Shown here: one piece after another, positions 25,729 to 38,138 of the stretch | How positions within the stretch are numbered: the stretch's first letter is position 1 | Layout of the letters: every line of letters begins with the position of its first letter | DNA from: a phage | Length of the DNA stretch: 64,000 nt | Sequence record: PZ452596.1 | Strand: one strand, 5' to 3' | Position numbers and translations under genes: made by a program | Notes under the pieces: generated by a model | Databases searched by the model: none | What the model was told of the DNA's origin: nothing | What the model saw: the letters and a program-made list of their open reading frames with translations, nothing else

Positions 25729-25941
25729 TCATTTTTGTCCTGTATTTACTTTATGCCGATGCACGGCCTTAACTTTATCAAGGTATTTTTCAAAATTTCG
25801 CAATCTAGTATAGTCTGCCGGAGATTGGTTGAGTGATACTTCTCGACGCAAAGCTGAAATGATATTTCCAACTTCCCTACGAATTTCATCTAATTGAAGA
25901 ACAGTAAGATTGCGAAGTTGCTTTTCAGTTAATTGTAGCAT
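25729..25941 (-). CDS. hypothetical protein upstream of rI (rI.-1-like by position)
   Basis: 70-aa ORF. Confidence 0.55.
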
Positions 25942-26566: not shown

Positions 26567-26755
26567 TTAGTCCTTAGTTAAATTTTCTAAATATGTTTCT
26601 AAATCATTTTCAGCTTTATCGATAGATTTTACTAATTCGTAATATGTTTCGGCATCTCCATAATCAGAAGATAATTCAAAAGACAAATCCTTTTCTAAAC
26701 TAATAATTTCACCAACTAAAAATAATATTTCGTTCTTTTGTTCGCGAGTAATCAT
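26567..26755 (-). CDS. small helical protein, family member
   Basis: 62 aa MITREQKNEILFLVGEI... Confidence 0.5.
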   Translation of the reverse strand: MITREQKNEILFLVGEIISLEKDLSFELSSDYGDAETYYELVKSIDKAENDLETYLENLTKD

Positions 26756-26937
26756 AAGGAATTTATATAATTAATAAGTTCTTGTTCTTTATTATCGAAT
26801 TCTTTAGAAAGTTCTTCGTACTCGTTTGCATTAAAAGGACCGCATTCATCACAAACTTTTTCCAATTCACTGTTTTTATCCATAACTTCGTGGATAAGAG
26901 AAAAGAGTTTGTCTTTTTGTTCTTTGCTTAGGCTCAT
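26752..26937 (-). CDS. small helical protein, family member
   Basis: 61 aa MSLSKEQKDKLFSLIHEV... Confidence 0.5.
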   Translation of the reverse strand: MSLSKEQKDKLFSLIHEVMDKNSELEKVCDECGPFNANEYEELSKEFDNKEQELINYINSL

Positions 26938-27107
26938 ATATTAATTTCCAGAAGTTTTAAAATAATTCGCTTTTGCTTAAATATTTCAATAGTTAAATGA
27001 TCAGTATCTTTTTGACCAATTCCAATGGCAAAACCTTTATTAGCAGCGAGTTCAATTAAATTATCAAGTTCACGTAACACTTCGTACTGTAACTCATAAC
27101 TATTCAT
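26934..27107 (-). CDS. small hypothetical protein
   Basis: 57-aa ORF MNSYELQYEVLREL..., ATGA overlaps on both sides; below track cutoff. Confidence 0.4.
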   Translation of the reverse strand: MNSYELQYEVLRELDNLIELAANKGFAIGIGQKDTDHLTIEIFKQKRIILKLLEINI

Positions 27108-27310
27108 TTCGGTTTACCTTCTTTAACGAAATCTGGATAAGGATAAAATCCCGAATAAAATCCTTCACCTTTATGATTGATGCATCCTTTATTAGAACAA
27201 TAGCACCAATAATCGAAATCACAAGCCATTTCATCGTTGCATAAAGCAAAAACAACCGGCCACTTACACTTTTCGCAGTGGGCATTTTTAAGAATACTAG
27301 TTTGGCTCAT
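27104..27310 (-). CDS. small Cys-rich protein (possible zinc-binding)
   Basis: Start taken at the ATG overlapping upstream stop (ATGA); sequence has CEKC...C...C..C..C. Confidence 0.45.
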   Translation of the reverse strand: MSQTSILKNAHCEKCKWPVVFALCNDEMACDFDYWCYCSNKGCINHKGEGFYSGFYPYPDFVKEGKPK

Positions 27311-27519
27311 AACCATGTAACCTTTAAGCAATATTCTTCTACATGTTGTTTACGACCTTTCTTATCAATAAAGGTATATTCAACGAATGTTCCAATGTAG
27401 TCTTTATCTACATCATGTGGACTATTAATTGGACATTTAGTACGGCAAATGCGTTCCCATTGACGAATAATTACTGCCTTATTCTTTGGGTCATACGGAT
27501 GTGGATAATGTATATTCAT
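27307..27519 (-). CDS. small hypothetical protein
   Basis: Start at ATG 27519 overlapping upstream stop (ATGA): MNIHYPHPYD... Confidence 0.45.
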   Translation of the reverse strand: MNIHYPHPYDPKNKAVIIRQWERICRTKCPINSPHDVDKDYIGTFVEYTFIDKKGRKQHVEEYCLKVTWL

Positions 27520-27983
27520 AATAACGGTTCCCAATCAACAATCACAATTTCTAATTTAGAAGAATATGTATCTAAAATCCCCTCAATAATATCCCAGTTC
27601 CCTTTACCTATGCCTGCACCAATCCTAGGCATATAGATTGTGGGTTTAATCAGTTTATTTTCACCAAACTCATTTAATTCTAACATACAATTCATTAAAG
27701 CGGAATACTCAAAATTTGGCCCTGGTTGAAATTGAGTATAAAGGTTGAAGCAATACGCTTTATGAGTCCTAAAGTATTTTTCATAGACTGAGTAAGAACC
27801 GAGTTTAGTTACATCACCCCATTCAGTCTGTAATTTATCAGCTTCCAAAATTTTAGGGAAAGCTTTGGTTAATTGACCCGCTACGCCTGAACCCATAGTA
27901 TGAAAACAATTGCATCCATGCGCAATATTTTTACCTTCAGCGAAAAGGGCGACAATATCGCCCTTGATATATTTTACAATCAT
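27516..27983 (-). CDS. macro-domain-like protein (putative ADP-ribose binding/processing)
   Basis: 155 aa; GDIVAL...IAHGCNCFHTMGSGVAG and PRIGAGIGKG parallel the macro-domain motifs (VNAAN...GGGV; ISTG.YG). Confidence 0.5.
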   Translation of the reverse strand: MIVKYIKGDIVALFAEGKNIAHGCNCFHTMGSGVAGQLTKAFPKILEADKLQTEWGDVTKLGSYSVYEKYFRTHKAYCFNLYTQFQPGPNFEYSALMNCMLELNEFGENKLIKPTIYMPRIGAGIGKGNWDIIEGILDTYSSKLEIVIVDWEPLL

Positions 27984-29938: not shown

Positions 29939-30152
29939 ATTTGACTTCCTCACCAGTACATAAATCGTATTCAACTAAACGAATAGGTTCATGAATGCCA
30001 TATCCCTGAACAGAAATTTCTGTCGTAGGATAAATTCCACTAATATCACCCATGTTCCACGCTTCATTAAATTGCTGTTCGCCTGAATTACTAAACCATT
30101 CTGCGAAAGCATTTAGCACATCTTTAGAACCTTCAATAATTATCTTTGCCAT
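29931..30152 (-). CDS. hypothetical protein
   Basis: 73-aa ORF. Confidence 0.45.
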   Translation of the reverse strand: MAKIIIEGSKDVLNAFAEWFSNSGEQQFNEAWNMGDISGIYPTTEISVQGYGIHEPIRLVEYDLCTGEEVKYD

Positions 30153-30514
30153 TACAGACTCTCAGTAAAGGTACGAGCGATAACGTCGCGCTGCTGTTCC
30201 GGAGTCAGAGAGTTAAAGCGAACTGCATAACCGGATACACGGATGGTCAGCTGCGGATATTTTTCCGGATGCTTAACTGCATCTTCCAGAGTTTCACGAC
30301 GCAGAACGTTAACGTTCAGATGTTGACCACCTTCAATTTTAACTGTAGGCTGTGGCTCAATTTCAATTTCACGGGCATGCAAACCGTAGAAAATTTCTGG
30401 GTCTACAAAAGAGTCCTCTTTAAAGGTTTTAGAGACAATAATTCGTGCTTGAATACCATCTTCAAAATAAATAGTGCCTTTGTGTGTGCCTTCAAGAATT
30501 TGATATGCTTTCAT
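30152..30514 (-). CDS. autonomous glycyl radical cofactor (GrcA/YfiD-like)
   Basis: 120 aa; C-terminal about 70 aa [41 protein letters not shown]... matches E. coli GrcA with glycyl-radical RVSGYAV; 3' half GC-rich. Confidence 0.85.
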
Positions 30515-37310: not shown

Positions 37311-37386
37311 TGGTCGAGGCAGTAGGGATCGAACCTACGACCCAGGACTTAGAAGGTCCTTGCTCTTCCTTCTGAGCTATGCCTCG
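37311..37386 (-). tRNA. tRNA-Arg (anticodon UCU)
   Basis: Hand fold: acceptor CGAGGCA/TGCCTCG, anticodon loop CTTCTAA, T-arm GTAGGTTCGATCCCTAC, encoded CCA. Confidence 0.85.
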
Positions 37387-37390
37387 GATT

Positions 37391-37465
37391 TGGCGGACGT
37401 GATAGGATTCGAACCTATAACCAATCGCTTAACAGGCGATCGCTCTGCCATTGAGCTACACATCC
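37391..37465 (-). tRNA. tRNA-Asn (anticodon GUU)
   Basis: Hand fold: acceptor GGATGTG/CACGTCC, anticodon stem ATCGC/GCGAT with loop CTGTTAA, T-arm ATAGGTTCGAATCCTAT, CCA. Confidence 0.8.
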
Positions 37466-37469
37466 AAAT

Positions 37470-37556
37470 TGGTGGGGAGTGATGGAGTCGAACCACCCGA
37501 GTCGCAATGACAATGGATTTACAGTCCACACCGCTACCTCTACGGGATAACTCCCC
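37470..37556 (-). tRNA. tRNA-Tyr (anticodon GUA), long variable arm
   Basis: Hand fold: acceptor GGGGAGT/ACTCCCC, anticodon loop CTGTAAA, variable arm GTCATTGCGACTCG, T-arm GGTGGTTCGACTCCATC, CCA. Confidence 0.8.
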
Positions 37557-37565
37557 TAATTAATT

Positions 37566-37640
37566 TGGTGGCCCTGGGTGGAATTGAACCACCATCTGGC
37601 GATTATGAGTCGCTTGCTTGAACCTTCCAGCTACAGGGCC
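37566..37640 (-). tRNA. tRNA-Ile (anticodon CAU, lysidine-type reading AUA)
   Basis: Acceptor GGCCCTG/CAGGGCC; anticodon stem-loop GCGACTCATAATCGC as in E. coli tRNA-Ile2; T-arm GGTGGTTCAATTCCACC; CCA. Confidence 0.8.
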
Positions 37641-37641
37641 T

Positions 37642-37717
37642 TGGTGCTGATTGACGGAATCGAACCGCCGACCTTCTCATTACAAGTGAGTTGCTCTACC
37701 TACTGAGCTAAATCAGC
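37642..37717 (-). tRNA. tRNA-Thr (anticodon UGU)
   Basis: Acceptor GCTGATT/AATCAGC; anticodon loop CTTGTAA; T-arm GGCGGTTCGATTCCGTC; CCA. Confidence 0.85.
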
Positions 37718-37722
37718 AAAAC

Positions 37723-37812
37723 TGGCGGAGGCGATAGGATTTGAACCTATGAGTCGCCGGAGCGACTGCCGGTTTTCAAGACCGGTGCATTAAACCACTC
37801 TGCCACGCCTCC
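37723..37812 (-). tRNA. tRNA-Ser (anticodon UGA), long variable arm
   Basis: Acceptor GGAGGCG/CGCCTCC; anticodon stem CCGGT/ACCGG with loop CTTGAAA; T-arm ATAGGTTCAAATCCTAT; CCA. Confidence 0.85.
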
Positions 37813-37814
37813 AG

Positions 37815-37888
37815 TCTCCATACAAGGATTTGAACCTTGGACCTCCTGATCCCAAATCAGGCGCTCTACCAAACTGAGCTACACGGAG
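37815..37888 (-). tRNA. tRNA-Pro (anticodon UGG), no encoded CCA
   Basis: Acceptor CTCCGTG/TATGGAG (two G-U pairs); anticodon stem CCTGA/TCAGG with loop TTTGGGA; T-arm CAAGGTTCAAATCCTTG. Confidence 0.8.
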
Positions 37889-37898
37889 TAAATTAAAT

Positions 37899-37972
<74 letters not shown>

Positions 37973-37977
37973 AAATT

Positions 37978-38064
37978 TGGTGCGAGAAGTGGGACTCGAA
38001 CCCACAAGGAAATCATTCCGCAGCATTTTAAGTGCTGTGCCTTTACCAATTTGACCATTCTCGC
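37978..38064 (-). tRNA. tRNA-Leu (anticodon UAA), long variable arm
   Basis: Acceptor GCGAGAA/TTCTCGC; anticodon stem CAGCA/TGCTG with loop CTTAAAA; T-arm GGGTTCGAGTCCC; CCA. Confidence 0.85.
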
Positions 38065-38065
38065 G

Positions 38066-38138
38066 CTGGGAATAAAGGACTCGAACCTTTGCATCTAGCA
38101 GTCAAAGTGCTATGCCTTACCAACTTGGCTAATTCCCA
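38066..38138 (-). tRNA. tRNA-Gln (anticodon UUG), no encoded CCA
   Basis: Acceptor TGGGAAT/ATTCCCA; anticodon stem TAGCA/TGCTA with loop CTTTGAC; T-arm AAAGGTTCGAGTCCTTT; 1 nt from tRNA-Leu. Confidence 0.85.

Follow-up and report, generated by a model that had tools for sequence, protein, structure and literature searches.

The small gene analysed here belongs to the T4-like phage RB27 and is known as tk.4 or, since a recent renaming, adfM. Its product, a macrodomain, is probably an orphan antitoxin that counters the bacterial DarTG2 system, likely by removing thymidine-linked ADP-ribose in the manner of the Streptomyces coelicolor enzyme SCO6735; it is this enzymatic step that we infer. Both the macro domain and the role against DarTG2 are already on record (T4 RefSeq annotation; preprint of November 2025), and tk.4 therefore opens no new question. 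Its residual value lies in the active site predicted for the T4-type protein, which would be of a lysine-less, glutamine-based type and which is the new detail of the present analysis, and in the extension of the name AdfM over two distant subfamilies.

The window, i.e. the whole 64,000-nucleotide stretch of phage DNA that was analysed (sequence record PZ452596.1), carries tk.4 within a tight array of co-directional genes (Table 1). A segment of 1201 bp around the gene is 100% identical to Enterobacteria phage RB27 (Tequatrovirus), for which RefSeq lists RB27_116, located between vs and tk.3, with the note 'tk.4' and the product 'phosphatase'. The 155-aa open reading frame (ORF) reported in the first-pass annotation runs from ATG to stop, and its translation contains the motifs quoted there, GDIVAL at residues 8-13, IAHGCNCFHTMGSGVAG at residues 20-36 and PRIGAGIGKG at residues 119-128. 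The same annotation had been unsure whether T4 has an equivalent. It does: T4 Tk.4 is identical over 155/155 aa, occupies the same position with vs and tk.3 on its flanks, and is annotated in RefSeq as 'phosphatase; Tk.4; contains A1pp phosphatase motif'. The two genes differ by 8 nucleotides, every one at a third codon position and synonymous; with twelve invariant residues among its homologues and its presence in thousands of phage records (see below), tk.4 is a real gene. Its GC content is 35.3%, vs 35.1% for the window.

The neighbouring genes are vs, encoding the valyl-tRNA synthetase modifier (RefSeq RB27), vs.1 (SLT), regB, tk.3 (DUF7202), a zinc-binding ORF, tk.2 and tk.1 (both DUF7438) and tk. 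No ADP-ribosyltransferase gene, including darT, was seen near tk.4 in the annotation or in the Pfam matches of these neighbours. Between positions 25800 and 31500, the numbers of promoter-like sites (22, vs 23 expected from shuffles) and of terminator-like sites (3, vs 2.9 expected) gave no usable signal.

Homologues of Tk.4 were found by tblastn in 2751 of 50,697 phage records, i.e. in about 5% of sequenced phages. In T4-like phages they usually adjoin vs, and they occur in other contexts in rV5-like and Felix O1-like phages, in Pakpunavirus, and in Vibrio and other phages. Two homologues, P0072 and P0118, are deposited as bacterial MAG proteins (Bacilli, Culicoidibacterales). Both are encoded on contigs of T4-like phages, whose other genes include Rnl1, PNKP, a Dda-like helicase and dCMP deaminase. 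On one of these contigs (L002), RNA ligase 1 and a DUF4326 gene are found two genes upstream of the macro gene, and the Dda-like helicase immediately downstream of it. The bacterial taxonomic labels of the two proteins are probably binning artefacts. Considered as pointers to a bacterial origin or to a toxin partner, they were set aside, since phage contigs are uninformative on a bacterial toxin-antitoxin context.

Table 1. Coordinates of tk.4, of its predicted functional elements and of other features mentioned in the text (positions in the window unless another record is named)
Feature	Position	Strand	Basis or remark
tk.4 / adfM CDS (RB27_116)	27516..27983	minus	ATG-to-stop ORF, 155 aa, single macrodomain
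ATGA overlap, tk.4 start / stop of upstream vs	27980..27983	minus	ORF coordinates and sequence …CTAGATGATTG…
ATGA overlap, tk.4 stop / start of downstream tk.3 (27307..27519)	27516..27519	minus	sequence …TTATTATGAATATAC…
tk.4 codons 22-36 (HGCNCFHTMGSGVAG), predicted first ADP-ribose/phosphate-binding loop	27876..27920	minus	conservation, alignment
tk.4 Asn25 codon	27909..27911	minus	
tk.4 Asp49 codon	27837..27839		
tk.4 codons 80-84 (NLYTQ), strand with invariant Gln84 (27732..27734)	27732..27746	minus	conservation, alignment
tk.4 codons 119-130 (PRIGAGIGKGNW), predicted second phosphate-binding loop	27594..27629	minus	aligned with TARG1 PRIGCGLDRLQW
tk.1 / tk.2, tandem paralogues	26567..26937	minus	both DUF7438
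tk.2 as called in RefSeq RB27	26752..26883		43 aa
Region between tk.2 and tk.3 with two small ORFs	26934..27316	minus	
Small ORF, 57 aa	26934..27107	minus	no Pfam match
Small cysteine-rich ORF, 70 aa	27104..27316	minus	PF23895 'Phage zinc binding domain', E 2.6e-29
vs.6	30152..30514	minus	annotated as GrcA-like
tRNA genes (10)	37311..38138	minus	
Contig regions with Tk.4 homologues	L002 41..3739; L003 5001..5480		T4-like gene content
T4 tk.3	NC_000866 60713..60925 (L004 3714..3926)		product label in the text

Family models, comparison of the sequence with solved structures and structure prediction agree that Tk.4 is a genuine macrodomain. The Pfam model Macro (PF01661) matches residues 22-132 with 27.7 bits, above its gathering cut-off of 22, and the match covers profile positions 2-113 of 118; PHROG 335 ('phosphatase') is matched with an E value of 1.3e-65. 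When the single sequence was compared with solved structures, BT1257 was found with an E value of 1.3e-9, together with Poa1p, SCO6735, DarG and TARG1, the match to Mycobacterium tuberculosis DarG being weak (E 5.7e-3). With a profile built from 62 Tk.4 homologues, down to 35% identity, the matches to these five proteins rose to E values of 6e-17 through 3e-11. The same alignment was the input for an AlphaFold2 model with a mean pLDDT of 93.4 and a pTM of 0.89. The predicted structure has the mixed alpha/beta macro fold, the protein ending at residue 155, just past it, and the top Foldseek matches of the model are TARG1, Poa1p, DarG, BT1257 and SCO6735, so that the macrodomain proposed from the letters alone is borne out by sequence comparison and by the predicted structure.

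In the structural comparison of the model, the highest value was obtained for BT1257 (18.4), followed by Poa1p (17.5), M. tuberculosis DarG (17.4), T. africanus DarG (16.7) and TARG1 (16.5), while coronavirus, PARP and MacroD-type macrodomains gave 13.5 or less. By these values the modelled protein is a free-standing 17.5-kDa macrodomain of the ALC1-like class (TARG1/DarG/SCO6735/Poa1p/BT1257), and not of the MacroD, viral or PARG type.

Twelve residues, G23, N25, G33, A35, D49, Y82, T83, Q84, P119, I121, G122 and G124, are invariant in 62/62 homologues. They include most of two glycine-rich patterns, N25-x5-G-S-G33-V and P119-x-I121-G122-x-G124, which correspond to the pair of phosphate-binding loops in macrodomains; the parallel to macro-domain motifs drawn in the first-pass annotation thus holds. 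In the first loop H22 (58/62 homologues), C24, C26 and M30 are nearly invariant, as are G128 and W130 in the second. Residue equivalences with known enzymes were taken from a MAFFT alignment of family members with six reference sequences (including BT1257, TARG1, two DarG macrodomains and PhiKZ gp104) and from an HMM alignment to TARG1. N25 aligns with N23 of PhiKZ gp104, with the DarG asparagine and with the TARG1 serine that is equated to Asn27 of SCO6735. The Q84 column holds K84 in TARG1, K80 in DarG, the lysine of the FPTK motif in PhiKZ gp104 and, likewise, a glutamine in BT1257. Gly126 stands in the column of TARG1 Asp125. An alternative register, given by hhalign for the family profile against PhiKZ gp104 and placing the NLYTQ strand two residues off FPTK, was rejected, its columns being of very low confidence.

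Neither the Lys84/Asp125 dyad of TARG1, replaced by Gln84/Gly126, nor the DarG FPTK lysine is thus found in Tk.4. Because Gln84 holds the lysine column and Gly126 that of TARG1 Asp125, Tk.4, as read from the alignment, cannot use the lysine-based chemistry of DarG and TARG1. A separate observation concerns Asp49, which lies in the helix formed by residues 44-52 and has no counterpart residue in the alignment with TARG1, DarG and PhiKZ gp104; within this family it may serve in catalysis, in contact with DNA or in structure.

By indirect alignment, the N25/Q84 pair, invariant in the Tk.4 family, fits the Asn27/Gln85 arrangement of SCO6735. The equivalence of Q84 and Q85 is transitive: Tk.4 was aligned to TARG1, DarG and BT1257, and these are structurally aligned with SCO6735 in the published study (PMC9411070). 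According to that study, the catalytic Lys and Asp are missing from SCO6735, and the place of the lysine is taken by Gln85, which Asn27 holds in position. The substitutions Q85A, Q85E and N27S abolish, or nearly so, the hydrolysis of DarT-made thymidine-ADP-ribose, and the authors suggest that the reaction is mediated by water, with the glutamine positioning the distal ribose; a catalytic Val25 and a long basic mobile loop are further features of the enzyme (PMC9411070). Like Tk.4, SCO6735 (5E3B) is free-standing, belongs to the ALC1-like class and has neither Lys nor Asp, with Gln and its supporting Asn essential in SCO6735 and only indirectly equated to those of Tk.4. It was matched by the model with a Foldseek E value of 1.4e-6 and by the profile with an E value of 4.8e-13, its structure ranking tenth in the PDB sequence comparison. 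It rescues cells from DarT. It differs from Tk.4 in being a bacterial chromosomal enzyme, and the two proteins are about 20% identical; Tk.4 has Gly23 two residues before N25, whereas SCO6735 has Val25 before Asn27.

The solved folds nearest to Tk.4 are those of human TARG1/OARD1, yeast Poa1p and Bacteroides BT1257. Besides its Gln84/Gly126 in place of the Lys84/Asp125 of TARG1, Tk.4 shares an Asn...Gln pair with BT1257 and an H-x-C-N-C motif with Poa1p, IAHGCNC of Tk.4 being aligned with LIHSCNC. Poa1p, a small-molecule phosphatase, has a serine at the position of Gln84.

Tk.4 would work like a DarG macrodomain, yet it is not a DarG. The NCBIfam DarG equivalog NF048014 gives it 30.3 bits against a cut-off of 250, and in DarG models of 329 and 338 positions it matches positions 2-146 only, which in NF048014 (338 positions) is the macrodomain half. 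The PADLOC DarG model gives 36 bits for Tk.4 and 133 bits for PhiKZ gp104. The DarG macrodomains of M. tuberculosis (5M3I), T. aquaticus (5M31/5M3E; catalytic Lys80) and T. africanus (7OMU) have the FPTK lysine where Tk.4 has Gln84, and DarG has a C-terminal DarT-binding domain, whereas Tk.4 has neither such a domain nor an adjacent darT. Its assignment as a DarG was therefore rejected on the equivalog cut-off, the catalytic lysine, and the C-terminal domain with its adjacent darT.

A protein also called AdfM, gp104 of phage PhiKZ, removes DarT2-made ADP-ribose from a DNA oligonucleotide in vitro, and its N23A substitution weakens the activity (Cell Rep 2026, PMC13309987). Like Tk.4, gp104 stands alone as a macrodomain, is encoded by a phage and counters DarTG2, but it is a true DarG-type domain with the FPTK lysine (E 9e-25 to M. 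tuberculosis DarG) and belongs to another subfamily than Tk.4. The two sequences are barely alignable (BLASTP E 0.005 over 23 aa; hhalign probability 96.6%). T4 is not mentioned in the gp104 paper (PMC13309987), and AdfM is a name given independently to members of two remotely related subfamilies of one fold class. The T4 protein is of the Gln type and is supported by genetics, whereas PhiKZ gp104 is of the DarG type with the catalytic Lys and is supported by biochemistry.

The genetics come from a preprint that is not peer reviewed, 'Systematic mapping of bacteriophage gene essentiality with HIDEN-SEQ' (bioRxiv 10.1101/2025.11.20.689424, November 2025). In a transposon screen on a DarTG2 host, tk.4 was the single significant T4 hit; a clean tk.4 knockout rendered T4 sensitive to DarTG2, and the gene was dispensable to T4 on plain K-12. 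The authors noted the structural similarity of Tk.4 to the M. tuberculosis DarG macrodomain, named the gene adfM, for anti-DarT factor Macrodomain, and considered that removal of ADP-ribose from DNA by its product 'seems likely', which is their inference (bioRxiv 10.1101/2025.11.20.689424). Earlier, and independently, T4 without adfA and adfN had been found to be still resistant to DarTG2, and another factor was therefore predicted (PMC11825919). Since RB27 Tk.4 is identical to T4 Tk.4 and lies at the same position, the same function is expected, i.e. it should be required on DarTG2 hosts. These data support the suggestion of the first-pass annotation that the protein reverses ADP-ribosylation imposed by a defence system, for which DarTG had been named as a test.

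After infection, the host toxin DarT2 puts ADP-ribose on thymidines of single-stranded phage DNA and blocks its replication. In the mechanism that we propose, Tk.4 would most likely bind the ADP-ribose via its two glycine-rich loops and hydrolyse the thymine-ribose bond, yielding free ADP-ribose and restored DNA. By SCO6735-type chemistry, Gln84, held by Asn25, would position the distal ribose, and water would be the reactant. All characterised relatives in the structural class of Tk.4, namely DarG, TARG1 and SCO6735 (PMC9411070) and, in vitro, PhiKZ AdfM (PMC13309987), remove thymidine-ADP-ribose made by DarT.

Other explanations of the same data were considered. Tk.4 might protect without catalysis, by binding and inhibiting DarT2 directly or by capping ADP-ribosylated sites, its macrodomain being then a binding module. 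Inactive SCO6735 Q85A, DarG K80A and TARG1 K84A do inhibit DarT in vitro by interaction, SCO6735 being the strongest (PMC9411070), and the lack of a catalytic lysine in Tk.4 would fit such a role. We nevertheless consider it unlikely: Tk.4 has no counterpart of the C-terminal DarT-binding domain of DarG, Asn25, Gln84 and both phosphate loops are strictly conserved in the 62 homologues, as fits an active site, and one would expect an inhibitor that acts stoichiometrically to vary along with the diverse DarT2 toxins and not to retain a fixed pocket. The label 'phosphatase', carried by both the RefSeq entries, with the A1pp motif in T4, and PHROG 335, raises another reading, in which Tk.4 is primarily an ADP-ribose-1''-phosphate phosphatase like Poa1p that clears the by-product of NAD-dependent RNA 2'-phosphate removal, its DarTG2 phenotype being secondary. 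The H-x-C-N-C motif common to Poa1p and Tk.4, including the His mutated in 6LFS, and the one T4-like contig with a homologue two genes from RNA ligase 1 would agree with it. The label was, however, transferred to Tk.4 by homology, the invariant Gln84 is replaced by Ser in Poa1p, and sensitivity to DarTG2 is the only known phenotype of tk.4, a gene that is dispensable on plain K-12, all of which makes a primary phosphatase role very unlikely. Weak A1pp phosphatase activity in vitro is generic to many macrodomains.

It is highly improbable that the protein acts on other ADP-ribose conjugates, with DarTG2 products as one target among protein marks left by Alt, ModA and ModB or by host toxins, RNA-linked ADP-ribose and Thoeris-type signals. 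Arginine is the residue modified by Alt, ModA and ModB of T4, and macrodomains are not known to remove arginine-linked ADP-ribose, which argues against the marks of these enzymes as substrates; moreover, no ADP-ribosyltransferase genes were found near tk.4. TARG1 and SCO6735 do remove protein-linked ADP-ribose as well (PMC9411070), and the occurrence of the family in about 2750 phage records, across many hosts, might point to a use beyond a single defence system. On the other hand, T-even phages are reported to be still sensitive to the mRNA ADP-ribosyltransferase system CmdTAC (PMC11618068), and Tk.4 therefore does not neutralise the CmdTAC RNA mark. The ideas, put forward at first, that the protein erases marks of the phage's own ADP-ribosyltransferases or degrades Thoeris signals found no support.

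A wider reading, which we regard as doubtful, is that the Tk.4 family arose by independent recruitment of a lysine-less macrodomain like those of BT1257, Poa1p and SCO6735, and is not a captured DarG; its chemistry would be water-mediated, with Gln and Asn as the positioning residues, and its substrates, as with SCO6735 or TARG1, would extend further, to protein- or RNA-linked ADP-ribose or to ADP-ribose-1''-phosphate. If this were true, one small gene, present in about 5% of sequenced phages, would blunt several NAD/ADP-ribose-based defences, DarTG2 being just one of them. As an antitoxin against DarTG2, Tk.4/AdfM adds to a stack of counter-measures to DNA ADP-ribosylation in T-even phages, in which AdfA and AdfN are directed against DarTG1 and Tk.4/AdfM against DarTG2. 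This bears on the host range of phages and on their therapeutic use against strains that carry DarTG.

Several further observations were made on the genes of the region. In T4, tk.2 and tk.3 abut, and RB27 has between them two small ORFs that are absent from T4 at this place. RefSeq labels the T4 product of tk.3 'Tk.2 conserved hypothetical protein', a minor annotation slip. RefSeq gives RB27 tk.2 only 43 aa; its start codon looks mis-called, because the ORF, which has 61 aa like its T4 counterpart, extends to position 26937, and the DUF7438 Pfam match covers residues 3-61. The gene vs.6, annotated as a GrcA-like autonomous glycyl-radical cofactor, has the glycyl-radical motif RVSGYAV near the C-terminus of its product and is probably a spare part for the anaerobic ribonucleotide reductase of the phage or for the host pyruvate formate-lyase. 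Further along, the window carries 10 tRNA genes (Arg, Asn, Tyr, Met(CAT), Thr, Ser, Pro, Gly, Leu and Gln). The corresponding region of T4 has 8 tRNAs and two small stable RNAs, so that RB27 appears to have extra Asn and Tyr tRNAs relative to T4.
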